Positions 5,769 to 30,458 of a stretch of DNA of 32,000 bases are shown in pieces. The notes below the pieces were generated by a model. The model was not told where the DNA came from, did not search any database, and was given only the letters and a program-made list of their open reading frames with translations. This DNA is from Peptococcaceae bacterium BICA1-7 (GTDB lineage: Bacteria; Bacillota; Desulfotomaculia; Desulfotomaculales; Desulfocucumaceae): assembly GCA_000802095.1 (NCBI GenBank), contig JUEB01000024.1, positions 188,277 to 220,276 on the forward strand, given 5' to 3'. The first letter of the stretch is position 1; each line of letters starts with the position of its first letter. Both the position numbers and the translations under genes were made by a program.

Positions 5769-6873
5769 AAGGTTTAATGACCCGGATCTGGGAAAGAGGA
5801 TGGTTTCCAGGGTCAGGTCTCTGGCACTAAAGGCAGCTGATCGGCTGGGCCGGCCAATTATGCTGATGGAGGTCTGCGGCACCCATACTGCCGCCATATC
5901 AAAAAGTGGTATCAGGATGCTGCTTGCTGATCTGCTGGAATTGCGGAGCGGGCCGGGCTGCCCTGTATGCGTTACGGCCCCGGGTGATATAGAAGCGGCT
6001 GTAAATCTTTCCCGCCTTCCGGGGGTAACCGTGGCCACCTTTGGAGATATGATCAGGGTTCCTGGAATAAGCTCTTCCCTGGAGCAGGAAAGGGCCCGGG
6101 GATCGGAAGTCAATATTTTTTATTCTCCCGGGGATGCAGTGGATTATGCCCGGCTTCATCCGGAAAAAGAAGTGGTATTTATAGGGGTGGGTTTTGAAAC
6201 CACTGCCCCCCTGGTGGCACTAAGTGTTGATGAAGCACGGGAATCGGGGATAAAAAACTACAGTGTGCTGTCACTTCATAAAATAGTTCCCCCGGTGCTG
6301 AGTAATCTTCTGTCCACCGGAGAGCTCAGTGTGGATGGCCTTATTTTACCCGGACATGTCTGTGTGATTACCGGACGCAGGGCTCTTGACTTTGTTGCCG
6401 GAAAATATAACGTGCCGGCGGCCATTGCCGGTTTTGAGGCCATGGATATTCTGGCTGCAGTCCACTCCCTGCTGGAGGCCATATTGGAGGGTCGCGCGGC
6501 TGTTGTTAACTGCTACCCCAGGGTGGTTAAAGAGAATGGGAATATACAGGCCCAAAAAATTATAGAAAAAATTTTCACCCCGGTGGATGCCCACTGGCGG
6601 GGATTTGGTGAAATAGCCGGCAGCGGTCTGGCCTTCAGGGAAGAGTATAGTGACTATGACGCCTCTTACCGGTATGCCATCGGGACTTCCCTGTCCACCC
6701 CCAAAACAGCCTGCCGCTGCGGAGAACTTTTAAAGGGAAAAATATATCCCGGTGACTGTGGTCTTTTTGCCCGCTCCTGCACCCCTGCCACTCCGGTGGG
6801 GCCCTGCATGGTGTCTTCCGAAGGGACGTGCTCGGTCTACTACCGATATCACCGGACGGCAATCATCCCATAA
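5755..6873 (+). CDS. hypD: Hydrogenase formation protein HypD
   Basis: 372 aa, overlapping hypC by 14 nt. Motifs CGTHT, GPGCPVCV, FETTAP, PGHV and C-terminal Cys motifs. Confidence 0.9.
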   Translation: MKIFERFNDPDLGKRMVSRVRSLALKAADRLGRPIMLMEVCGTHTAAISKSGIRMLLADLLELRSGPGCPVCVTAPGDIEAAVNLSRLPGVTVATFGDMIRVPGISSSLEQERARGSEVNIFYSPGDAVDYARLHPEKEVVFIGVGFETTAPLVALSVDEARESGIKNYSVLSLHKIVPPVLSNLLSTGELSVDGLILPGHVCVITGRRALDFVAGKYNVPAAIAGFEAMDILAAVHSLLEAILEGRAAVVNCYPRVVKENGNIQAQKIIEKIFTPVDAHWRGFGEIAGSGLAFREEYSDYDASYRYAIGTSLSTPKTACRCGELLKGKIYPGDCGLFARSCTPATPVGPCMVSSEGTCSVYYRYHRTAIIP

Positions 6874-6878
6874 TTATC

Positions 6879-7013
6879 GGGGACATTCCTCGGCCAGAAT
6901 ACCATGCTTAAAAGAGGAGGTATCCCCATACCATGTTTGGTGTGTCCCCGCCATCCTGATCGGGGACATTCCTCCAACCCAAAAGTGAAGCTCCAAAGAG
7001 GAGGTGTGTCCCC
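6879..7013 (-). repeat. Two hairpin repeat units (reverse orientation) filling the hypD-hypE gap
   Basis: The reverse complement reads AAGGAATGGGGACACACCTCC-N24-GGAGGAATGTCCCCGATCAGGATGGC-GGGGACACACC-aaacatggtat-GGGGATACCTCC-N24-GAGGAATGTCCCCGAT. Arm positions are 7000-7013 / 6962-6975 and 6916-6927 / 6879-6891. Confidence 0.85.
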
Positions 7014-7019
7014 ATTCCT

Positions 7020-8024
7020 TTGGACAAAAGGATACTGCTGTCCCATGGCGCCGGAGGCCAATTAACCAGACAGCTGGTGGATGACATTTTTGTTAAGTAT
7101 TTTAATAACGAGGCCTTAAAACCACTGTCCGACGCCGCCGTAATTGAACTGCCGGGGTCCAGGCTGGCCTTCACCACTGATTCTTTTGTGGTGAGACCAC
7201 TTTTTTTCCCGGGCGGTGATATAGGCAAGCTGGCGGTTTGCGGCACTGTAAATGATTTGGCTGTTAGTGGCGCCAGGCCTTTATTTTTGACGGCCTCCTT
7301 CATTATTGAAGAGGGCCTGTCTTTAAGCGTACTGGATAAGGTTGCCCGCTCCCTTGGGGAGACCTGCCGGACGGCCGGGGTTAGAGTAGTGGCCGGAGAC
7401 ACCAAGGTGGTGGAAAAAGGTCACGGGGATTTGATTTTTATCAATACGGCAGGGATAGGGGTAATACCGGAGGGCCTGGATTTGGGGCAGCATAGTATAG
7501 CCCCGGGAGATGTGGTCATCGTCAACGGTCCGATGGGGAACCATGGGCTGGCAGTGTTGCTGGAAAGGGGTAATCTGGGGCTGGACTCCGGGGTGATCAG
7601 CGACTGTGCCCCCCTGAATGGATTAATTGAGCAAATACTGGGTAAGGCCCCCGGTGTTAAAATGATGCGGGATCTCACCCGGGGTGGGCTGGCTACAGCG
7701 GTTAAAGAGATAGCTCTGGGGGCGGGTGTGGATATATGGCTGGAGGAGCCCTCCATTCCGGTGGATGATCAGGTAAGGGGGGCACTGGAAATATTGGGAC
7801 TTGATCCTCTCTATATGGCTAATGAGGGGAAATTTGTCATTTTTGCCGCCCCGGAGGATGCCCCGGAGGTGATGAGAATACTTGCCAGTGACCCTCTGGG
7901 TGAAAAAGCTGCCATTATTGGCCAGGTGGCCCCGGGCAAGGGCAGTGTTTTATTAAAAACAATGCTGGGCGGGACAAAAATACTGGATTTGCTGGCCGGC
8001 GATCCTTTGCCGAGAATCTGTTGA
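7020..8024 (+). CDS. hypE: Hydrogenase maturation carbamoyl dehydratase HypE
   Basis: 334 aa with a TTG start. N-terminal ILLSHGAGG, AIR-synthase-like fold motifs, and the obligatory C-terminal PRIC. Confidence 0.9.
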   Translation: MDKRILLSHGAGGQLTRQLVDDIFVKYFNNEALKPLSDAAVIELPGSRLAFTTDSFVVRPLFFPGGDIGKLAVCGTVNDLAVSGARPLFLTASFIIEEGLSLSVLDKVARSLGETCRTAGVRVVAGDTKVVEKGHGDLIFINTAGIGVIPEGLDLGQHSIAPGDVVIVNGPMGNHGLAVLLERGNLGLDSGVISDCAPLNGLIEQILGKAPGVKMMRDLTRGGLATAVKEIALGAGVDIWLEEPSIPVDDQVRGALEILGLDPLYMANEGKFVIFAAPEDAPEVMRILASDPLGEKAAIIGQVAPGKGSVLLKTMLGGTKILDLLAGDPLPRIC

Positions 8025-8026
8025 AT

Positions 8027-8103
8027 GGGGACACACCGAAAGCGGAAAGGGGACACACCGAAAGCGGAAAGAGGACACACCGAAAGCGGAAAGGGGACAC
8101 ACC
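8027..8103 (+). repeat. 22-bp tandem repeat, 3.5 copies (GGGGACACACCGAAAGCGGAAA)
   Basis: Copies at 8027-8048 and 8049-8070 are identical. The copy at 8071-8092 has one change (GAGG). A partial copy occupies 8093-8103. The array starts 3 nt after the hypE stop. Confidence 0.95.
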
Positions 8104-8298
8104 TGCTGAAGCTGAGGTATTCCTTTGAGGACAGGAATGTCCCCGATTATATGGCGTGACACACTAAACATGGTAAGGGGATACAACTCCTCTTTAGAGT
8201 TTAGCTTCAGGGCCGGAGGAATGTCCCCGATCGGGATGGCTGGGATACACCGAACAGGATCGAACAGTGATTGCTTTGGGTGTTGGAGGAATGTCTCT
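8093..8298 (+). repeat. Three chained hairpin repeat units (third degenerate) upstream of hypF
   Basis: Unit 1: GGGGACACACCTGC (8093-8106), N24, ACAGGAATGTCCCC (8131-8144). Unit 2: GGGGATACAACTCC (8177-8190), N24, GGAGGAATGTCCCC (8215-8228), then the linker GATCGGGATGGC. Unit 3: TGGGATACACC (8241-8251) ... GGAGGAATGTCTC (8285-8297). Confidence 0.85.
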
Positions 8299-8316
8299 GG
8301 TTAAGGAGGGGTATGC

Positions 8317-10722
8317 GTGGGGGAGTGCAGGAGCTGCCGGATTATATATACCGGTACCGTCCAGGGTGTGGGCTTTCGCCCCTATGTGTACAATCTGGCC
8401 AGGTCCCTGGGCCTTAGCGGAGCGGTGGGCAACACCGGGGAAGGTGTGCTGGTGGAGTTGGAAGGGGAGGCTGAAAGGGTAAATAAATTCATCCGTGAGA
8501 TGGAATTCAATCATCCGGCTCTGGCCCGGATTAATAAGTTCGATATAATTCCTGCCCCCCAAAGGGGCTTTAAGGGATTCACAATAATGCCCAGTGAAGG
8601 TTTACCCAAAGGAGTTTCGGTGGTGCCGCCGGATGCGGCCCTCTGTTCCCAGTGCCGGGAGGAGACACTTTCCCGCCGGGACCGGCGCTACCTTTACCCC
8701 TTTACCAACTGCACCAACTGCGGGCCCAGGTTTACCATATCTGCCAGGCTGCCCTATGACCGGGTGAATACAACCATGGAGGTTTTCTCCATGTGCCCGG
8801 AATGTGCACTGGAATACAATAATCCTCAGGATCGCAGGTATCATGCCCAGCCGGTGGCCTGCCCGGTTTGCGGGCCTCAGGTATGGCTCACCGACGGCCT
8901 GGGGAATCGCCTGGAGGGCCTCTGGGCCAGTGAGTGCGGGAGATTGCTTAACGAAGGAGCTATACTGGCGGTGAAGGGGCTGGGGGGATTCCACCTGGTG
9001 TGTGATGCCTTCCAGGGGGAAGCAATTATTAAATTACGAAAAAAAAAGAGACGGCCCGCCAAGCCTCTGGCGGTGATGTGCCGGGATATGGACACTGTAA
9101 GAGAGCACTGCATGGTTACTCCCCGGGAGGAAGAATTATTGCAATCACACCATGCTCCCATTGTATTGCTTTCCAGGAACGGCAGGAACAGCCTGCCGGG
9201 AGAGCTGGCCCCGGGGATGGACACCCTGGGTGTAATGCTTCCTTATACCCCGATGCATCTGGTCTTATTGAACAGCTCAGCTCCTGTTCTGGTCATGACC
9301 AGCGGTAACAGCAGCGGTTTGCCCCTGGTTATTGATAATCAGAGGGCATATGCGGAACTTGGCGGAATTGCTGATTTCTTCCTTATGCATAACCGTGAAA
9401 TATTGAATCGCTGTGATGACTCAGTGGTGGCTGTTCATTCGGGAGGGGAACATTTTTTCCGGCGTTCCCGGGGTTACGTGCCGACACCCGTGGAGGTGCC
9501 CTTCAGGGAGGGACCGGTGGTGCTGGGGAGCGGTGGGGAGATGAAAAATACCTTTTGCATTTTAAAAGATGGAAATGCCTATTTAAGCCAGTATATTGGG
9601 GATATTTCACTGCTGGAGGGGCAGGAGGCATATATAAGTTCTTTTGAAAATTACTGCCGCCTTTTGGGTATAAACCCTGAAGTGGTGGCTCTGGATGCCC
9701 ACCCTGATTACCATGTGGCCGGATTAACCTCCTCTGTGCAGGGCCGGCGGTTTAACGTGCAGCATCATCATGCTCATATGGCGGCCTGTATGGCGGAAAA
9801 TGGTATTGACAGGCCGGTAATAGGGCTAATCCTGGATGGTACTGGATATGGTCTGGATGGGAATATATGGGGTTTTGAGGTTTTAACCGGTGACTATGTT
9901 AATTTTACCAGGGCTTCTCATTTAGACTACCTGCCACTGCCAGGAGGAGAAAGGGCTGTAAAAAACCCCTGGGTATGCGCGGCAGCCACCTTAATCCATT
10001 TTCTGGGGGACAGTGGATATCAGTCTGCCCGGTCTCTTTTTCCTGATAAGTCACCTGAAATAGCAACTATTAAAAAGATGATGAAAGAGAATATAAACTG
10101 CCCCCCGGCCTCCAGCTGTGGGCGGCTATTTGACTCAGTGGCCGCTATGCTGGGCATTTGTATGGTGAATACCTATGATGGCCAGGCAGCCATTGAGCTG
10201 GGCGATATGGTCAATAAGGAATGGGGACACACCATCAGCGGAAAGGGGACACACCTCTATAGGAAGCCTGGCTCTGGGGTCGGAGGAATGTCCCCGATTG
10301 GAAATGGCTCTGGGGTCGGAGGAATGTCCCCAATCGGTGAAGGACTGGCTATAAATCCTTACCGTTATACAATTAACGGGGATGTTATCGATCCGGCGTG
10401 TATGTTCGAGGCCATTTTAAAAGATTTGCAGTCAGGCATACCGGTTAGTGCAATTGCCCGCCGTTTTCATGATACGGTGGCGGCTATGGCGGTGGAGGGG
10501 GCGGTTAAGGCCAGAAAGGAAAAAGTAATAAACAGTGTGGTATTAAGTGGGGGCTGCTGGCACAATAAATACCTTTTTGAAACTACACTCCAACTACTGC
10601 AAAGTAAGGGATTTGATGTCCACTATCACCGCCTTGTTCCCCCGGGTGATGGGGGAATATCGCTGGGGCAGGCGGTAGTGGGCTATAAGAGATGGAAGAA
10701 TTGCAGTTCAACTGTTATGTGA
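8317..10722 (+). CDS. hypF: Carbamoyltransferase HypF (carries an in-frame repeat-derived insertion)
   Basis: 801 aa. GTG start 7 nt after SD AAGGAGG. Acylphosphatase motif VQGVGFRP, four CxxC zinc-finger motifs, YrdC-like LAVKGLGGFHL, and a Kae1-like C-terminal domain ending PPGDGGISLGQ. Confidence 0.9.
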   Translation: MGECRSCRIIYTGTVQGVGFRPYVYNLARSLGLSGAVGNTGEGVLVELEGEAERVNKFIREMEFNHPALARINKFDIIPAPQRGFKGFTIMPSEGLPKGVSVVPPDAALCSQCREETLSRRDRRYLYPFTNCTNCGPRFTISARLPYDRVNTTMEVFSMCPECALEYNNPQDRRYHAQPVACPVCGPQVWLTDGLGNRLEGLWASECGRLLNEGAILAVKGLGGFHLVCDAFQGEAIIKLRKKKRRPAKPLAVMCRDMDTVREHCMVTPREEELLQSHHAPIVLLSRNGRNSLPGELAPGMDTLGVMLPYTPMHLVLLNSSAPVLVMTSGNSSGLPLVIDNQRAYAELGGIADFFLMHNREILNRCDDSVVAVHSGGEHFFRRSRGYVPTPVEVPFREGPVVLGSGGEMKNTFCILKDGNAYLSQYIGDISLLEGQEAYISSFENYCRLLGINPEVVALDAHPDYHVAGLTSSVQGRRFNVQHHHAHMAACMAENGIDRPVIGLILDGTGYGLDGNIWGFEVLTGDYVNFTRASHLDYLPLPGGERAVKNPWVCAAATLIHFLGDSGYQSARSLFPDKSPEIATIKKMMKENINCPPASSCGRLFDSVAAMLGICMVNTYDGQAAIELGDMVNKEWGHTISGKGTHLYRKPGSGVGGMSPIGNGSGVGGMSPIGEGLAINPYRYTINGDVIDPACMFEAILKDLQSGIPVSAIARRFHDTVAAMAVEGAVKARKEKVINSVVLSGGCWHNKYLFETTLQLLQSKGFDVHYHRLVPPGDGGISLGQAVVGYKRWKNCSSTVM
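10206..10340 (+). repeat. Composite copy of the hairpin repeat family inside the hypF reading frame
   Basis: TCAATAAGGAATGGGGACACACC (10211-10233) is identical to 26839-26861. A 22-bp-spaced second GGGGACACACC sits at 10245-10255. GGAGGAATGTCCCC is at 10282-10295. A 36-bp tandem duplication covers 10269-10304 and 10305-10340. The outer boundaries are approximate. Confidence 0.85.
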
Positions 10723-10960
10723 TAGACGATTGTATTTTTATATTAAAAAATCTGAATATAAAAAATATAAAATTAATTTTAATATGCAAAAAACTGTCAT
10801 CATATAGTGAACACTGTATTTTTATTAGCAGATAGCATACGGGAAGGGAGGTCATATATGGAAAATAACAGCGAATGATTATCCTCAAACGTTACAAAAA
10901 TTACACTCTTACCGGGAAAGAAAAAGTTAAGGAATATGACTTTGAGGACAAGGAGGAAAG

Positions 10961-24632: not shown

Positions 24633-24690
24633 GGGGAGTCTGACTTCGAAGTCAGAGGAATGTCCCCGATCGGGATAATGTCCCTGATAG
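24633..24690 (+). repeat. Compact variant of the hairpin repeat family in the sigma-factor leader
   Basis: GGGGA (24633-24637) and TCCCC (24663-24667) enclose a perfect 18-bp palindrome tctgacttcgaagtcaga (24639-24656). GAGGAATGTCCCCGATCGGGAT (24655-24676) is followed by a half-copy AATGTCCCTGATAG (24677-24690). Confidence 0.8.
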
Positions 24691-25262: not shown

Positions 25263-25282
25263 AAAAAGGAGGGATGAGATTA

Positions 25283-26845
25283 ATGAATAATCCCGAAAGC
25301 AGACTTTCCGAATATATTGATGAATTGAATGCGGAACAAGAGCCGGAAAAACACCGGGGAGCCGCCGATACTCCGGAATTGGAAAAACTTTTAACAACGG
25401 TCAGAGCGGTCCGTAGTTTAAGAGAACCGGAACTACCCGATCCCGGATACCCTCAAAGACTGGCCAAAGCAGCAGCTCAAAGCCTCCACCAGCCGGCTGC
25501 GCCAAAACCCGGATTCGGTAGCCGGGTATATGAAATGGTGGCCGGGCGTTTTCGCCGACGGTGGGTTTTACCGCCTGTGGCGGCTTTGGTGGCCGGGTTG
25601 CTTTTATTTGCAGTATTGACCAGCTGGAACGGCTTGTTTAACCGTGATGTGGTATACGCCATGGAAAAAGCGGTCTCCAAATTGTCAAATTATCATGGTG
25701 TACTTGAGATGCGCTCAAAAAACGCAGCCGGAGAGGAGTGGCTGATCCGCCGGGTGGAGCTTTGGTCCGATGGAGAAAAGTATGCCGTGCGGCAGGACGA
25801 CGGCACTCTGACAGTTAACAACGGCGAGAGGAAGTGGCAGGTCCGTGCTCAAAGCAAGGAAGTGGCCTTGCTGCCTCTGGCGCCTGACCCGGCCCGGAAT
25901 GGTTTTGACCTGCGGGATGAGGCTAAACTGGCTAATCAATACCCACACACCGTTGTGGGCCCGGATATAATTGCCGGCCGCGAGACTTTAAAGCTTGAGA
26001 TTTCGCCACCGGGAGGCCTGGCCTACTATTTATGGGTGGATACAGAAACCAATCTGCCCATTCAACTGCAAACAGCGATGCAGAATTCGCTGCAGACCAC
26101 CTATACTTTTGTAAACTTTGCACCAAATACCCTGATTGACCCCATTATATTCACTTACCAGACGCCTGAAGGCTATAAAGTGGTAGAAAAGGATCCGGGG
26201 CAATTGGTGGCCACGGTGGAGGAAGCGGCTGCCATCAGCGGATTAACGCCGCTGCTCCCAAAAGAAGCACCAGCCCGCATCTTTGCTTTCAAAGACCGTA
26301 TCGTTTTTGATTATGGTGATGCTACAATTGTTGAAGCCGCCGCCAGGGGGCCCTTTAATCCCGCTCCCAATGCCGCCCTTGGCACTGCTGCAGGTGGCCC
26401 GCTGGAAGTGTGGTGGGAACGATTGCGTTGGCGGCAGGAGGGGCTTGAAATTCAGGCCGAAGGGGCGCGGCGGGCGGAATTGGCCCGTCAGATTGCTGCC
26501 GACTTTGCTCTCCCGGACTCCGGTAAAAAACTGGTCAAGGCCCAGGTCCAGGTGCCGGTGGATATGGAGATTGCCGGAGCAAACCAGCAGCAGGTGGACC
26601 GGGGAAGCAGCCCCTGGCATCTTGATCCTCTGCAGGTGGCGCTTACTTTTGTCAACTTAAAGGTATCTCCGGAAGGAATAGTAGGCGAGCCGAAGATACC
26701 AATGTCCTATTATAAGCTGGCAGCGAACAACGGCGCCGAGGCAGTGGTGGAGGTGTCCGGAGGCCCGGTTAAAAAGGTCTACCTGCAGCGGCTTGTCCGG
26801 CAGGACGAGACAGGCATCTGGTCGGTTGTCGGGTACGATCAATAA
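25283..26845 (+). CDS. Putative anti-sigma factor: single-pass membrane protein with LolA/RseB-like extracytoplasmic domain
   Basis: Adjacent to the ECF sigma gene. A short cytoplasmic N-domain, one TM helix (WVLPPVAALVAGLLLFAVLTSW), then a large external domain. ATG at 25283 is better spaced from GGAGG than ATG at 25274. The function is inferred from context. Confidence 0.6.
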   Translation: MNNPESRLSEYIDELNAEQEPEKHRGAADTPELEKLLTTVRAVRSLREPELPDPGYPQRLAKAAAQSLHQPAAPKPGFGSRVYEMVAGRFRRRWVLPPVAALVAGLLLFAVLTSWNGLFNRDVVYAMEKAVSKLSNYHGVLEMRSKNAAGEEWLIRRVELWSDGEKYAVRQDDGTLTVNNGERKWQVRAQSKEVALLPLAPDPARNGFDLRDEAKLANQYPHTVVGPDIIAGRETLKLEISPPGGLAYYLWVDTETNLPIQLQTAMQNSLQTTYTFVNFAPNTLIDPIIFTYQTPEGYKVVEKDPGQLVATVEEAAAISGLTPLLPKEAPARIFAFKDRIVFDYGDATIVEAAARGPFNPAPNAALGTAAGGPLEVWWERLRWRQEGLEIQAEGARRAELARQIAADFALPDSGKKLVKAQVQVPVDMEIAGANQQQVDRGSSPWHLDPLQVALTFVNLKVSPEGIVGEPKIPMSYYKLAANNGAEAVVEVSGGPVKKVYLQRLVRQDETGIWSVVGYDQ

Positions 26846-26914
26846 GGAATGGGGACACACCTCCCTGGCACGATTGGCTCTGTGGGTCGGAGGAATGTCC
26901 CCGATCGGGATGGC
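26834..26914 (+). repeat. Hairpin repeat unit overlapping the 3' end of the anti-sigma gene
   Basis: TCAATAAGGAATGGGGACACACC (26839-26861), CTCC plus an N24 spacer, GGAGGAATGTCCCC (26889-26902), then GATCGGGATGGC (26903-26914). Confidence 0.85.
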
Positions 26915-26935: not shown

Positions 26936-26963
26936 AAACCAGGGTTTTTACAAACCCTGGTTT
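26936..26963. terminator. Bidirectional intrinsic terminator
   Basis: Perfect 12-bp stem aaaccagggttt / aaaccctggttt with loop ttac, between convergent stops at 26845 (+) and 26963 (-). Confidence 0.7.
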
Positions 26964-29593
26964 TAATTCAATAGCTTTTCTACATACCCTTCCGTTCCGT
27001 TTACACGGATTCGCTCCCCGTCTTTGATCAGCCTGGTGGCGTTTTCCACGCTTACCACCGCCGGAAGACCGTATTCGCGGGCAATGACGGCTCCATGGGT
27101 CATAAGCCCGCCCACCTCGGTCACCAGGCCCTTGACGGATACAAAAAGCGGCGTCCAACTGGGGTCAGTGAATGTGGTGACCAAAATATCGCCATCCTCT
27201 ATGTTGGCATCAGACATCTTTAAAACCACCCGTGCCCGCCCTTCGATAACGCCGGTTGAAACGGGTATACCGGCCAGAGCGCCCTGGGGGATATTCCCTG
27301 TGTTGTATTGTCCGGATATGACCTCGCCCTCGGATGTCATCACCCTCGGCGGCGTCAGTTTCTCATAAACCTCGTACTCCTCTTTTCTCCTGGTTAGGGT
27401 GCTGTAATCCAGCCTGCCTGTGCGAACGGCGTCCCGGAGTTCATCAAAGGAGAGATAATAGATGTCCTCCTTCTCCTGCAGGACTCCCTTTTGCACCAGC
27501 ACGGCGGCCTCCTTCAGCAGTGCCTGCTTATAAATGTAGTAACGTTGTATGAAGGCATATTTGGGATATTCCCGATAGCCGATAAAATTACGCATAACGC
27601 TGATCATTTTCTTTGTCTTTTTGGCCTTTTGCCTGCCACCGGGCAATTGCTCCAGGCGGCTTAAAAGGTCTTGCTCCTTCTGCTCTGCTTCCATTCGCCC
27701 CTGCTCAAATTTGACGTTCTTGGCATTGGGTTTAAAATTTTTGATGTTGCTTAAAATCACGGGGATGAGCGAGGTGGGCTTTTCGCTCCAGCGGGGCCTG
27801 GTGATGTCGATCTCGCCGGAACAGCGCATGCCGTATTTTTCAAGGTACGACCGTAGAGATTGGCTGACAGAGTCTCCGCCCTCCAGTTTGGCCAGGTCAT
27901 CAAAAAAGGTTTCATCACTGGCATGACCAAAATATTCAATCACCGCCGGATATTGCCGGACCACATCCGAGACATCCAGGAGCGCAAGCCCCATTTCGGA
28001 GGTGACATTATTGTCTACCGATTGGGAGAGAGTGTCGGCTGCACTCTTTTCGCCCAGCCACTTTTCCATTTTCTTATTGATCCAATTAGCTGCGTAGACC
28101 CCCACCATGATCGCTCCCAGGCTTCGTGAATCATACATTAATTCCTTTAACGATTTATAGTCCTGTAAAATAAAGTCAAACAGCTCATCGCCTGATACTT
28201 GTGTGATCCTTTGCCGCAGATCTCTTATGGACGCCTGGTTTTGGGAGATGAGACTTTGAATGAGCGCCACGTCGTTTTCGCGGTAGATCTTTATGGACTG
28301 AAGGGGAAGTGCCCAGGATAGACCCTCTCTGCCCAGGCTGATGGATCTCTTTCCGTGCGGCAGTGATTTCATAAAAGCTTTTCGCTTCATTAAACTTAAG
28401 ATAGCGTTTTGCATCAGAGGGTCGTTCCTGCCGATGGTGCTGATCACTATCTTTCGCCCAATGGTCGAGGCCAGGTCGTGCGTCAGATCTAAGAAAAGCC
28501 TTCCACCGGCTTTACGTATTGGAAAATCACCAGATAAAAACTGGAGGAAGGACATGCCCAGAGGCTTAATGGCATCCGTCATCATCTGCTGATGGCCGAA
28601 CGACATATAGACACGGTTCTGATCATCGTTTACGTCCATTATTGGATATAAGGTGGTGATGGGGCGGCTCTGAAGGATGAATAACATTTCCTCGCATATG
28701 CACCATTCAATATCCTGGGGGCGGCCAAAATACTTCTCGATCTTTCTTCCCGTGCTCTCAAGCTGCAAAATCTGCTGGTCTGTCAGGGCTTGCATATTTT
28801 GCTGCTGTGGCTCAATCTCCCGCTCCTCCGTGCCGCCTTCTTCCAGTGCATGGATGGCCAGCTTCTTGGAGGATATCTTCTTATCAATAATCCTTCCCTC
28901 CCGCACCTTATAGATATCAGCATTCACCAGGCCTGAGACCAGCGCCTCGCCAAGCCCAAAGCTGGCGTCGATGGAGAGCACCTTCCTGTTGGAGGTGACG
29001 GGATCGGCCGTAAACATAATCCCAGCTGTCTGCGGGAAAACCATCCTCTGTATGACCACAGACAGGTAGACTTTGCGGTGGCCGAAGCCGTTTTGCATAC
29101 GGTAGATCACCGCCCGGTCGGTAAACAGCGAGGCCCAGCACTTGCTGACATGCTGCAGGATGGAATACTTTCCTTTAATGTTCAAATAGGTATCCTGCTG
29201 GCCCGCAAAGGAGGCCAGAGGCAGATCCTCAGCCGTGGCGCTGGAGCGCACGGCATAGGCGTTCTCCCCGCCAAGCTTTAAAAGGTAGCTGGTAATCTCT
29301 TCCTCTATGTCCCTGGCAATCTTCGCCCCTTCGATGATCCCACGGATCTTTCCGCTAATTTCACCTATTTTTTCCCTTTCGTTCACCTTTAAAAGGGACA
29401 GATGATCCAGCAGCGCGTTAAATTCTCTGTTATCTTCAATAGTTCTTTTATAGGCAGCGGTGGTGACACAAAAGCCCTCCGGCACCCGTACTTCCTCAAT
29501 CCTTGACAGTTCCCCCAGGTTTAAGCCTTTGCCACCGACGACCGCAAGCTTTGTTTTGTCTATCTCCTGAAAACCAAGCACATATGAATTCAT
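26963..29593 (-). CDS. PEP-utilizing enzyme, PpsA / rifampicin-phosphotransferase (RPH)-like architecture
   Basis: 876 aa from the ATG at 29593; the track ORF extends to 29659 and would overlap the nitroreductase. N-terminal ATP-grasp (VGGKGLNLGE, AVRSSATAEDLP, FTADP) and a C-terminal swivel phosphohistidine domain (GGLMTHGAVIAREYGLPAVV). No C-terminal PEP/pyruvate TIM-barrel domain follows. Confidence 0.85.
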   Translation of the reverse strand: MNSYVLGFQEIDKTKLAVVGGKGLNLGELSRIEEVRVPEGFCVTTAAYKRTIEDNREFNALLDHLSLLKVNEREKIGEISGKIRGIIEGAKIARDIEEEITSYLLKLGGENAYAVRSSATAEDLPLASFAGQQDTYLNIKGKYSILQHVSKCWASLFTDRAVIYRMQNGFGHRKVYLSVVIQRMVFPQTAGIMFTADPVTSNRKVLSIDASFGLGEALVSGLVNADIYKVREGRIIDKKISSKKLAIHALEEGGTEEREIEPQQQNMQALTDQQILQLESTGRKIEKYFGRPQDIEWCICEEMLFILQSRPITTLYPIMDVNDDQNRVYMSFGHQQMMTDAIKPLGMSFLQFLSGDFPIRKAGGRLFLDLTHDLASTIGRKIVISTIGRNDPLMQNAILSLMKRKAFMKSLPHGKRSISLGREGLSWALPLQSIKIYRENDVALIQSLISQNQASIRDLRQRITQVSGDELFDFILQDYKSLKELMYDSRSLGAIMVGVYAANWINKKMEKWLGEKSAADTLSQSVDNNVTSEMGLALLDVSDVVRQYPAVIEYFGHASDETFFDDLAKLEGGDSVSQSLRSYLEKYGMRCSGEIDITRPRWSEKPTSLIPVILSNIKNFKPNAKNVKFEQGRMEAEQKEQDLLSRLEQLPGGRQKAKKTKKMISVMRNFIGYREYPKYAFIQRYYIYKQALLKEAAVLVQKGVLQEKEDIYYLSFDELRDAVRTGRLDYSTLTRRKEEYEVYEKLTPPRVMTSEGEVISGQYNTGNIPQGALAGIPVSTGVIEGRARVVLKMSDANIEDGDILVTTFTDPSWTPLFVSVKGLVTEVGGLMTHGAVIAREYGLPAVVSVENATRLIKDGERIRVNGTEGYVEKLLN

Positions 29594-29618
29594 AAGGACA
29601 TCCCTTCTTAAGAAGAAT

Positions 29619-30458
29619 TCAAACCAAAAATTGCCATACGGAGCGTCCCTGTTCCTCATTTAATAAAATATTGCAGTCTATATTCTTCATCATCATTCCC
29701 AGCCAAAAGTGACAGGCGCATACCCCAATGTCAACATTGGGATGTTCCCACTTGATGTGTTTATAGCCGACGGGCATTGCTATGGAAATTGTTTTAAAGT
29801 CAGATGAAACAGTGAAGCGCCAGAACTGGCTATTGGCGGCAGAAGGAGCTTTCCGGGCAAGGTCAAACGCGTACAAAATCTCTGGAGGAAGGCTTTCCTC
29901 GCTTATGCCCTCCTCCAAAAATGCGCCCACAGGCTTGCGCCTGTAGCTAAAAAATGATGTCTGCACCCTATCAGCCAGCCTAACGCCCTCATTCTGCCAG
30001 TATCCGACCGGTGTGATGCAAATAGCCCGTTGGCCCTGCACCACGCCCTTTCCGTAGCCCCATTTGGGCATTGGCAAGGCAGCGTTTGCCCCCAGATGCG
30101 GCATAATGCGCTCCAATTCAGCCAGAGTATAATGGCCATACCAGCAGGTAGCAAGTCCCAGGCTGGTGGCGTATAGGATCAGAATTTCCCCCACAAATCC
30201 GGCCGCTGACACGGAGCAGACATCCGTATCCGATAGAAAAGCCGCCCCATCAGGCGGTGCCGGAAAAACAGTATAGAGTTTCCTGTCGGGTCTGGCCTTG
30301 AACATGCGTATGGAAACAGTGTGTTCAAAAGGCACTTGAATATTGCCAATGAAGCTTTGCAGCAAAGTCATTTTCGATTCCTCAACGGGACGCAGCTCAT
30401 AAGCCCGCGTGGATCTGCGGGCGTTTACTGCGGCTTCCCAATCAATGCCTTTAATCAC
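29619..30458 (-). CDS. Nitroreductase-family flavoprotein
   Basis: 279 aa. GTG start 5 nt after AGGTG. N-terminal RRSTRAY motif and the overall nitroreductase-like pattern. The substrate is unknown. Confidence 0.7.
   Translation of the reverse strand: MIKGIDWEAAVNARRSTRAYELRPVEESKMTLLQSFIGNIQVPFEHTVSIRMFKARPDRKLYTVFPAPPDGAAFLSDTDVCSVSAAGFVGEILILYATSLGLATCWYGHYTLAELERIMPHLGANAALPMPKWGYGKGVVQGQRAICITPVGYWQNEGVRLADRVQTSFFSYRRKPVGAFLEEGISEESLPPEILYAFDLARKAPSAANSQFWRFTVSSDFKTISIAMPVGYKHIKWEHPNVDIGVCACHFWLGMMMKNIDCNILLNEEQGRSVWQFLV

Follow-up and report, generated by a model that had tools for sequence, protein, structure and literature searches.

Within the 32,000-nucleotide stretch of DNA analyzed here (the window), which comes from the metagenome-assembled genome (MAG) "Peptococcaceae bacterium BICA1-7," the gene for the hydrogenase maturation protein HypF carries a copy of a short hairpin repeat that is translated as part of the enzyme. 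We consider it very probable that positions 10213 to 10340 of the window are a copy of a non-autonomous hairpin repeat, which was inserted once in the ancestor of a clade and has been kept as a tolerated loop of HypF. The element-encoded segment is rich in Gly, Ser, and Pro and, judging from the predicted structure and its distribution, seems to be a flexible surface loop inherited vertically. The repeat itself belongs to a family that appears not to have been described before; it is abundant in a clade of Peptococcaceae/Desulfotomaculales-like Bacillota.

The host gene, hypF (8317 to 10722, plus strand), encodes a carbamoyltransferase of 801 residues. Profile searches returned the Pfam domains Acylphosphatase, two zf-HYPF, Sua5_yciO_yrdC, HypF_C, and HypF_C_2, the TIGR00143 equivalog model scored 766 bits against a cutoff of 466 bits, and PDB entry 3VTH was matched as HypF with an E value of 2.6e-189; the acylphosphatase domain, the two zinc-finger CxxC pairs, and the YrdC-like and Kae1-like domains expected of a HypF carbamoyltransferase are thus all present. 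All columns that are invariant across 115 HypFs are conserved in the window protein, and a second member of its sequence cluster differs solely in how the start residue is written. The hypABCDEF genes are intact and adjoin an hdr-mvh [NiFe] hydrogenase cluster. With dN/dS values of 0.12 to 0.21 (0.12 to 0.20 in comparisons that include the window lineage), hypF remains under purifying selection.

According to the original prediction, the hypF open reading frame (ORF) runs straight through a composite copy of an intergenic repeat, and the conceptual translation of ORF 8317 to 10722 bears this out: the whole stretch is read as NKEWGHTISGKGTHLYRKPGSGVGGMSPIGNGSGVGGMSPIGEG with no stop codon. The copy (plus strand, residues ~633 to 675, without counterpart in PDB or outgroup HypFs) has the layout A1-A2-spacer-B1-B2, where the A box is GGGGACACACC and the B box is GGAATGTCCCC. 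A unit 1 (AATAAGGAATGGGGACACACC, 10213 to 10233) is read as NKEWGHT, and its codons recur in the hypF genes of L001, L002, and L004. When every sequence statement was rechecked against the window, the likeness to the intergenic copies held up: the left end (10211 to 10233, TCAATAAGGAATGGGGACACACC) is identical to 26839 to 26861 at 23 of 23 positions, and the TAA of the element at 10215 to 10217 is indeed out of frame within hypF. The repeated 22-mer that had been noticed corresponds to a second A unit with a 22-nt period (ATCAGCGGAAAGGGGACACACC, 10234 to 10255), which is read in a shifted frame as ISGKGTH; two A units spaced 22 nt apart also occur in the hypF of L006, and positions 10219 to 10255 are 92% identical to a tandem array of the same 22-nt period at 8023 to 8103. 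The spacer, which corresponds to the hairpin loop region and extends from the A2 core to the B1 core (10256 to 10284), is 29 nt long; as the window thus has 22 plus 29 nt where L001 and L002 have 30, the net gain is 21 nt and the reading frame is kept. B unit 1 (10269 to 10304, 36 nt, including GGCTCTGGGGTCGGAGGAATGTCCCCGATTGGAAA) is read as GSGVGGMSPIGN, and its block 10269 to 10298 equals 26875 to 26905 save for one additional T in the intergenic copy. B unit 2 (10305 to 10340, 36 nt) is a direct repeat of B unit 1 and is read as GSGVGGMSPIGE. The 36-nt tandem duplication called earlier therefore stands as a pair of direct repeats, but the two units are identical at only 31 of 36 positions, and because they differ at 5 the duplication is not very recent. 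Tryptic peptides predicted from the element-encoded stretch include EWGHTISGK, GTHLYR, and KPGSGVGGMSPIGNGSGVGGMSPIGEGLAINPYR.

The family consensus is (T)AAGGAAWGGGGACACACCTCC, a loop of ~20 nt, and then GGGGTCGGAGGAATGTCCCCGATYGG, giving an element of ~65 to 75 nt; a "mini" form has a spacer of 9 nt. The A and B arms are imperfect inverted repeats that pair as 7 bp plus 5 bp, and similarity between copies runs a few bases past the arms (TAAGGAA.. and ..GATYGG). Eight copies of each core, GGAATGTCCCC and GGGGACACACC, were counted in the 32 kb, whereas shuffles lead one to expect 0.06 and 0.03 occurrences, respectively, and no shuffle attained 8. In the retrieved family DNA we counted 123 A-spacer-B units, the commonest spacer classes being 30 nt (38 copies) and 29 nt (29 copies); loci of the family number 84 and are spread over several MAGs. 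Compensatory changes are seen in the inner stem (C-G in 78 copies versus G-C in 19; U-A in 97 versus G-C in 3). Single copies fold with z-scores between -2.5 and -3.7, and the composite hypF copy, folded on the sense strand, is not exceptional (z = -1.56). Core counts, number of loci, stem covariation, and folding scores together identify a dispersed, multicopy hairpin repeat of the RPE-like class. Arrays of B units with a period of 35 to 38 nt are common in the family (for instance, six units in L049). The consensus is free of internal stop codons in all six frames and encodes low-complexity peptides, which would account for why the element is easily tolerated; ~8% of the sampled repeat clusters fall within genes.

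Further sites in the window hold the repeat. Two tandem copies in reverse orientation occupy the hypD-hypE gap (6868 to 7020, minus strand), where the hypD stop codon (6871 to 6873) lies inside a copy and a GGAGG of the element sits upstream of the hypE TTG start. The hypE-hypF gap contains a cluster (8023 to 8302, plus strand) of 3.7 A units with a 22-nt period and three B boxes; orthologous clusters with other module numbers are found in L001, L003, and L004. A solo B-box copy (24636 to 24676, plus strand) precedes an ECF sigma factor gene. The single complete intergenic copy (26839 to 26914, plus strand), composed of an A box, a 30-nt spacer, and a B box, folds as a hairpin of -29.2 kcal/mol (z = -2.45), and its TAA (26843 to 26845) serves as the stop codon of ORF 25274 to 26845. 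A sigma-54 promoter considered in TGGCACGATTGGCT of the spacer at 26862 was dropped, as the spacing is wrong and it occurs in a single copy only. No target-site duplication is evident at the hypF junctions or, by comparison with the empty site of the window, at those in a rifampin-phosphotransferase (RPH) gene described below; insertions of this age may have lost one. No transposase-sized ORF bracketed by A and B boxes was found in ~0.7 Mb of family loci, and L101, considered as an autonomous parent element, proved to be a chance match. The whole window gave no match in Rfam 15 at gathering thresholds, and a literature search for the core strings returned just coincidental primer matches.

At the protein level, the predicted insertion in the Kae1-like domain is supported by ~40 residues that have no counterpart in the solved structures 3VTH and 4G9I or in HypFs outside one clade. 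Residues 633 to 688 of the window HypF align to 16 residues of 3VTH, and outgroup HypFs have short, unrelated loops at the insertion site. In an AlphaFold2 model of the whole protein (pLDDT 91.5, pTM 0.91), the loop is placed in the Kae1-like domain between a helix (623 to 633) and a strand (685 to 687), and residues 637 to 674 form the sole segment with pLDDT below 50, modelled as coil; the model superposes on 3VTH_A with a TM-score of 0.95 (Foldseek). The confident fold around a single low-confidence coil is consistent with the surface-loop reading put forward earlier, and the loop position fits the fold as predicted. Searches with the 44-residue element peptide found no relative: a word-indexed protein search gave zero candidates, and an exhaustive HMMER protein search gave a single match, P0122 (E = 1e-4), which was rejected as an unrelated tandem-repeat protein.

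Orthologs of hypF that are 72 to 80% identical bear the element at the identical site and in the same frame and orientation. Their A and B boxes are recognizable at the DNA level, and the corresponding loop peptides include KERGHT..GSGVGGMSPI in P0003, KEWGHT..GGMSPM in P0011, and KERGHT..GMSP in P0004. The carriers form a monophyletic group of at least 10 lineages, and in a neighbor-joining tree of HypFs they map to the base of one clade. A homologous segment in genomes that lack the family would have pointed away from a repeat origin; where flanking DNA sufficed for a judgment (L001, L004, and L123, the contigs of L002 and L006 being too short), the ortholog genomes also bear the family, with copies in equivalent intergenic gaps. 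Loop length varies across the clade from about 11 to 56 residues, the motif is fully lost in some members, and element length differs between lineages. These comparisons suggest that the insertion is ancient and clade-wide, not specific to the window genome, and that nothing but the additional A and B units is peculiar to the window lineage. In metagenome scans, the exact left junction of the hypF insertion, sought as a guide to length polymorphism, had 0 matches, and of 132 pattern matches to the HypF C-terminal region, 0 were confirmed as relatives.

From this distribution, we infer one insertion in the ancestor of the carrier group, followed by divergent fates of the copy. It would have become the "mini" form in L004 and a solo box in L123 and L006, decayed in L003, L005, and L122, and expanded in BICA1-7 by one A unit (+22 nt, with a 29-nt instead of a 30-nt spacer, net +21) and one B unit (+36 nt). 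Modules were most likely gained and lost by replication slippage or by recombination between the tandem 22-nt and 36-nt units, and frame-breaking variants would have been removed by purifying selection on hypF. A single insertion requires a loss in the lineage of the closest relative, P0002/L003, whose hypF (84% identical) contains no recognizable box. That gap, together with the differing forms of the element at orthologous hypF sites (long, mini, solo box, and composite), could also be read as the outcome of repeated independent insertions, or of replacement by gene conversion, at a hot spot in the loop. An RPH-like loop, which holds the long form in L030 and two or three mini forms in L088 and L111 and is empty in a 74%-identical homolog, would fit such a hot spot, as would the genic spacers, which match unrelated copies of other genomes as well as or better than they match their orthologs (0.83 to 0.87 versus 0.70 to 0.77). 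However, a 30-nt spacer carries too little signal to decide between independent insertion and descent, and codon position, frame, and orientation are shared by every hypF that carries the element, the early-branching P0011, P0004, and P0009 among them. The decayed remnants in other clade members occupy the same position, and the various forms can be derived from each other by deletion or duplication of units. We therefore regard recurrent insertion as unlikely. That the insertion damaged hypF, leaving a decaying pseudogene or a weakened enzyme, is highly improbable, even though ~43 residues added to the Kae1-like catalytic domain might, in principle, interfere with the site of HypE carbamoylation and the NCBI label of the protein is "hypothetical." The ORF of 801 codons is intact, the invariant residues are present, selection on the gene is evident from its dN/dS, the fold predicted around the loop is confident, and the equivalog cutoff is passed with 300 bits in hand; moreover, the complete hyp operon and its client hydrogenase lie intact alongside, and the insertion has persisted across the whole clade. 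Between a tolerated loop and a compromised gene, the two outcomes envisaged by the original prediction, the evidence favors the former. A repeat-induced misjoin that placed an intergenic repeat into hypF deserves mention, since the source is a MAG and repeats classically cause chimeric joins, but such an artefact is extremely improbable: the identical 801-residue HypF is encoded both on a 255-kb contig and on a second, distinct record from JGI, BICA1b, and has two NCBI accessions; independent assemblies from other species and samples have the element at the same codon; and colinearity with HypF holds in either flank, with the frame preserved.

Simple passive carriage of the element does not explain its 11-nt cores, which are conserved beyond what a neutral, disordered loop would retain at a dS of 0.7 to 0.9. 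Between the window and L001, the hypF boxes are identical at 50 of 52 nt, compared with 80% over the gene. Both cores match at 11/11 positions among the hypF genes of the window, L001, L002, and L004, and the B core does so in L123 as well, although the peptide is variable in length and predicted to be disordered. The cores may instead be retained in hypF and in the hyp gaps for a role as nucleic acid, which would make the genic copy dual-coding and no passive passenger; as a hairpin in the polycistronic hyp mRNA, the repeat could govern how stable individual segments are or how they are processed; alternatively, a dedicated protein could bind or nick it. Such a role would accord with the covariation in the stem, hairpins of about -29 kcal/mol retained by genic copies, cores that are equally invariant in orthologous intergenic copies while module numbers shift, and the placement of copies at gene boundaries all along the hyp operon. 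On the other hand, the genic copy has decayed or lost one box in L003, L005, L122, and L006 with hypF kept, the repeat has no Rfam match, a promoter and terminator scan around the hyp elements gave counts not above those of shuffles, the sense-strand fold of the composite copy is unexceptional, and short-patch gene conversion with the many other copies could equally conserve the cores. We judge this role quite unlikely, and give the same low weight to its extension, in which selection on an RNA or DNA hairpin, or a dedicated protein recognizing it, actively maintains the cores across species in coding DNA and at hyp gene boundaries and makes the hypF copy a cis-element tying processing or stability of the hyp mRNA to a translated loop. 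If that were true, the family would also serve subsurface Desulfotomaculales-like bacteria as a lasting source of new surface loops and gene fusions. Recruitment of the loop at the protein level, for example, as a flexible lid or as a segment interacting with HypE or HypC-HypD, is very unlikely: the loop has long been kept in frame and GSGVGGMSPI is nearly identical between the window and P0003, but its length varies widely, some members are wholly without the motif, and the segment is predicted to be disordered. In addition, unrelated enzymes contain the same element peptides, which also appear in other frames and orientations, so that peptide conservation follows from conservation of the DNA. 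The tolerated, vertically inherited loop remains our preferred reading of the hypF copy.

Colonization of genes in frame, as proposed by analogy with Rickettsia, extends beyond hypF. The repeat is read in frame in an RPH/PpsA-like gene of three genomes and also in StiP and C-C_Bond_Lyase genes, such that the family appears in several unrelated conserved genes and in at least three combinations of frame and orientation. In the RPH/PpsA-like protein, the insertion adds 27 residues relative to 5HV1, exactly at one loop between two conserved strand motifs. The window homolog (26963 to 29659, minus strand; Pfam PPDK_N and PEP-utilizers) is empty at this site (DIEWCICEE/MLFILQSRP) where, in the alignment, those of L030, L088, and L111 hold the element in frame. 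Element-spanning ORFs in L064, L068, L081, L056, and L044 were set aside as spurious, being low-complexity or antisense-looking sequence; those of L064 and L081 contained no Pfam domain. In a SpoIID (L112) and an arginase (L078) gene, the element is located N-terminal of the domain, perhaps ahead of the true start, and these cases are left ambiguous.

Rickettsia RPEs lie in frame inside unrelated housekeeping genes as well as between genes (Ogata et al. 2000 Science 290:347, as summarized in PMC10969869). Like them, the BICA1-7 repeat is short, hairpin forming, and non-autonomous, with both intergenic and in-frame genic copies, encodes extra peptides compatible with the host fold, and is passed to descendant species while decaying to varying degrees. 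The two differ in host (free-living anaerobic Bacillota versus an obligate intracellular alphaproteobacterium) and in length (~65 to 75 nt versus ~100 to 150 nt). Unlike RPEs, the BICA1-7 repeat has a modular build in which 22-nt A units and ~36-nt B units vary in number, occurs also in the mini form, is read in several frame and orientation combinations, and has cores that are nucleotide-invariant across species; it thus seems to behave like RPEs but is likened to them by behavior, not by sequence, and we do not file it as a member of RPE-1 to RPE-10. Among prokaryotic MITEs, intragenic in-frame copies are described for Coxiella QMITE1/2 (PMC5896051), and intragenic ERIC and Anabaena MITEs are mentioned in PMC10969869. 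Like MITEs, the BICA1-7 repeat is small, has arms that are inverted repeats, is dispersed in many copies, and now and then is fused in frame to a gene or extends one at the C terminus; it also supplies or overlaps stop codons of upstream genes. Unlike those of MITEs, its arms seem to be internal stem partners, not clearly terminal repeats, and the ~0.7 Mb of family loci contain no parent insertion sequence with matching ends. Pneumococcal BOX elements, also cited in PMC10969869, have the modular structure boxA-boxB(n)-boxC and resemble the BICA1-7 repeat in their tandem internal unit of variable number, their occurrence in Bacillota mostly in intergenic DNA near gene ends, and their stable structure; they sit in an unrelated host group, so this comparison is one of architecture, not sequence, and no BOX element is known to have resided in frame in a conserved enzyme over the long term. 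With REP/BIME sequences, the BICA1-7 repeat has in common imperfect palindromes at gene 3' ends, clustering, both orientations, and stable orthologous positions. REPs are by definition extragenic and are associated with RAYT (TnpA-REP) transposases; given its share of genic clusters, the BICA1-7 repeat is not strictly extragenic, and the REP 5' tetranucleotide is not evident.

Rickettsia provides the best-known cases of palindromic repeats colonizing housekeeping genes in frame, a phenomenon often tied to relaxed selection in bacteria that live inside cells. In the present case it is found in free-living, hydrogen-metabolizing Bacillota of deep clay rock, where it affects a maturation enzyme needed for [NiFe] hydrogenase, and the insertion has survived speciation under purifying selection. 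Annotators should be cautious, since peptides derived from the element and stop codons supplied by it turn up repeatedly in these MAGs. The clade offers a natural experiment on the insertion tolerance of the HypF Kae1-like domain, and a tractable case for asking why the cores of a repeat stay invariant within coding DNA.

The hypF open reading frame (8317..10722, plus strand, 801 aa) passes through 10211-10340 without a break, and the composite repeat copy that the original prediction placed there is borne out in its parts. The left end (10211-10233) is identical to 26839-26861 at 23/23 positions, and the block 10269-10298 equals 26875-26905 except for one additional T in the latter. The repeated 22-mer corresponds to two A units with a 22-nt period, like the tandem array at 8023-8103, and the 36-nt tandem duplication consists of direct repeats (10269-10304 and 10305-10340) identical at 31 of 36 positions. 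The A and B boxes, the two arms of a dispersed hairpin repeat, have 11-nt cores (GGGGACACACC for A, GGAATGTCCCC for B) that occur eight times each in the 32-kb window, with chance expectations of 0.03 and 0.06 from dinucleotide-preserving shuffles. The repeat also occurs in the hypD-hypE gap (6868-7020, in reverse orientation), in the hypE-hypF gap (8023-8302), and at 24636-24676 and 26839-26914.

The hypF segment is an insertion. Query residues 633-688 stand opposite only 16 residues of 3VTH (Caldanaerobacter HypF), and 52 query residues stand opposite 11 of 4G9I (Thermococcus HypF); in an alignment of 115 HypFs, the sequences below ~60% identity all have an unrelated short loop of 9 to 14 residues. 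The AlphaFold2 model built from this alignment (mean pLDDT 91.5, pTM 0.91) superposes on 3VTH_A with a TM-score of 0.95. Residues 637-674 form its sole segment with pLDDT <50, modeled as coil and placed after helix 623-633 and before strand 685-687.

Purifying selection acts on the host gene (pairwise dN/dS with the loop excluded, 0.12 to 0.21; dS, 0.4 to 1.2), and the sequence evidence points to a hypF that still works. All columns invariant across the 115 HypFs are kept, and the gene belongs to an unbroken hypA-B-(C)-D-E-F operon, which is immediately followed by hdrA/C/B-mvhD/G/A and a maturation protease. The hypF product (KJS65971.1, from the metagenome-assembled genome [MAG] Peptococcaceae bacterium BICA1-7) is publicly named “hypothetical protein JL50_14245” yet is clearly a HypF; because it scores 766 bits against the 466-bit cutoff of the NCBIfam equivalog TIGR00143, that label is a mere old annotation. 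In the related locus L001, hypF and hdrA are separated by a sigma-54 activator that has an Fe-hydrogenase-like sensor domain (L001 12351-14540); L005 has no more than a 65-aa piece of this activator, the window (10723-10960) has none, and regulation of hyp-hdr-mvh therefore differs among relatives.

The hypF stretch is a member of the repeat family, lies in frame in a HypF loop, and is common to a clade. Ten HypF relatives with 70 to 84% identity form this clade in a neighbor-joining tree computed with the loop columns left out, and their DNA was fetched and compared at the insertion site. In L001 and L002, one A box, a 30-nt spacer, and one B box are read in the frame used in the window and encode KE(R/W)GHT...GSG(V/D)GGMSP(I/M). 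L004 carries a mini form, its spacer being 9 nt; L006 lacks a B box and has two A units at a 22-nt distance; L123 has a solo B box (GGAATGTCCCCAAT); and L005 and L122 have decayed remnants. No recognizable box was found at the site in L003, the closest relative, and the early-branching members P0011 and P0004/P0009 are carriers. The family is also present in the corresponding hyp intergenic gaps of the ortholog genomes. Those with enough flanking DNA to tell (L001, L004, and L123) carry the family, so their homologous segments do not come from repeat-free genomes, as an objection to the original prediction would have it. The simplest history would be a single insertion in the clade ancestor, followed by lineage-specific deletion and decay and by expansion in the BICA1-7 genome. 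Recurrent insertion or gene conversion at the hypF site is a live sub-alternative; the orthologous spacers are 0.70 to 0.77 identical (ranks 3 to 51 of 117) versus 0.83 to 0.87 for the best unrelated copies.

Compared with L001 and L002, the window copy has an additional 22-nt A unit and a 29-nt spacer (net, +21 nt) as well as one additional 36-nt B unit. All length variants observed in the clade are multiples of three and stop-free, the expected residue of purifying selection on the host gene. Very probably, the element is carried as a tolerated passenger translated into a disordered loop, whose units would be gained and lost by slippage or recombination between tandem units, with selection for frame filtering the changes. 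The 11-nt cores are identical in hypF of five lineages, despite dS values of 0.7 to 0.9 and a length-unconstrained peptide; between the window and L001, 50/52 box positions are identical, against 80% for the whole gene. Orthologous intergenic copies have equally invariant cores and changing module numbers. Such invariance would reflect either selection on a hairpin or binding site or short-patch gene conversion from other copies.

One genome per species was scanned for the 17-mer GGAGGAATGTCCCCGAT. Matches with A boxes clustered in one set of MAGs: Bacillota bacterium Ch29, FK_Sedi_B_Bin.80, Peptococcaceae BRH_c4a/b, Betzabe MAG118-121, Desulfotomaculum sp. BL5_bin.2, Soudan_19, Pelotomaculum propionicicum, and P. 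terephthalicicum; lone matches that lack an A box and come from unrelated phyla seem coincidental. FK_Sedi_B_Bin.80 holds dozens of copies (L012, L024, L027, L028, L032, and others, JAMCVT01 contigs) and is labeled Actinomycetota; the repeat being otherwise seen in Peptococcaceae-like Bacillota, it may be mislabeled or a mixed bin. In the same MAG, a tandem run of six B units, spaced at exactly 36 nt, lies outside long ORFs (L049 2950-3146), showing that tandem amplification of this 36-nt unit also happens at other places in the family. The 123 A-spacer-B units in the fetched DNA give the consensus (T)AAGGAAWGGGGACACACCTCyC, a variable loop, and GGGGTCGGAGGAATGTCCCCGATYGG, with core-to-core spacers of 30 nt (38 copies), 29 nt (29 copies), ~52 nt owing to one additional 22-nt A unit (14 copies), or 9 nt in the mini form (12 copies). 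The arms are imperfect reverse complements, and in the structure predicted by RNAalifold, stems of 7 bp and 5 bp are separated by a 2-nt mismatch; the 7-bp one is uninformative because it is set by the search pattern, and compensatory changes are seen in the inner stem (C-G in 78 copies versus G-C in 19; U-A in 97 versus G-C in 3). Folding energies of single copies are about -29 to -30 kcal/mol (z-scores, -2.5 to -3.7). All six frames of the consensus are free of internal stop codons; its sole stop is the 5'-edge TAA, in one frame.

At this edge, TAAGGAA, the element recurrently provides, or overlaps with, the stop codon of the gene before it. The TAA of ORF 25274..26845 (26843-26845) belongs to a repeat copy, the hypD TAA (6871-6873) lies inside the reverse-orientation copy, and the first A box of the hypE-hypF cluster adjoins the hypE TGA (8022-8024). 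The last ~11 codons of L001 hypD run into an A box (L001 8585-8618), making its C terminus element encoded. A reverse-complemented A box (7000-7022) provides GGAGG ~15 nt upstream of the putative hypE TTG start, and a B-like box (8287-8302) lies immediately upstream of the hypF ribosome-binding site; the elements may influence translation initiation in the hyp operon.

In 84 family loci, boxes were grouped into 123 clusters and screened for spanning long open frames and then with Pfam; of the clusters sampled, about 8% lie within genes. A rifampin-phosphotransferase/PpsA-like (RPH/PpsA-like) gene contains the element in frame and antisense in three genomes (one long form in L030, two mini forms in L088, three in L111), encoding NRGHSS/REVCP exactly between DIEWC..G and (F)YIVQSRPITT. 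The L088 protein has 27 residues at this site and structure 5HV1 has 0; the window homolog (26963..29659, minus), 74% identical to that of L030, has an empty site. Further in-frame copies occur in StiP and a C-C-bond lyase (L116). In L098 (1-2259), a single frame without stops runs from a hybrid histidine kinase (HisKA-HATPase-REC) through an element into an OmpR-type regulator (REC-Trans_reg_C), which may represent gene fusion mediated by the element or read-through. Two candidates, SpoIID and arginase, are equivocal, and five further element-spanning ORFs are spurious.

Elsewhere in the window, an 86-nt inverted repeat (29172-29257/30995-31080, 84%) was rejected as a mobile element; it reflects the similar coding sequences of two PPDK_N-type (PpsA/RPH-like) paralogs carried on opposite strands, of which the second extends towards the window end. 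A perfect 20+20-nt palindrome (ATAGATAGACCGCTAAACAT/ATGTTTAGCGGTCTATCTAT, 1607-1646), unrelated to the repeat family, lies between the ends of two convergent genes (1593 and 1660) and may act as a bidirectional terminator or an operator.

In-frame MITE or palindromic insertions are on record for Rickettsia palindromic elements (RPEs), intragenic ERIC, BOX, Coxiella QMITEs, and Anabaena MITEs (PMC10969869; PMC5896051). The present family resembles RPEs in mode of action but is shorter, modular, and in another host phylum; on these grounds, rather than by sequence comparison, we leave it outside the RPE families. MITE membership is unproven because no target-site duplication was found and the fetched family loci contained no transposase-bearing parent IS; unlike REP sequences, the family is not strictly extragenic. 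Rfam gave no match, and the core strings did not occur in the searchable literature; a repeat family with RPE-like behavior in Peptococcaceae-like Bacillota is apparently undescribed. In-frame repeat insertion is already known; what is notable here is its occurrence in free-living subsurface hydrogen-metabolizing bacteria, together with the age of the insertion, its remodeling in place, and the invariance of its cores.
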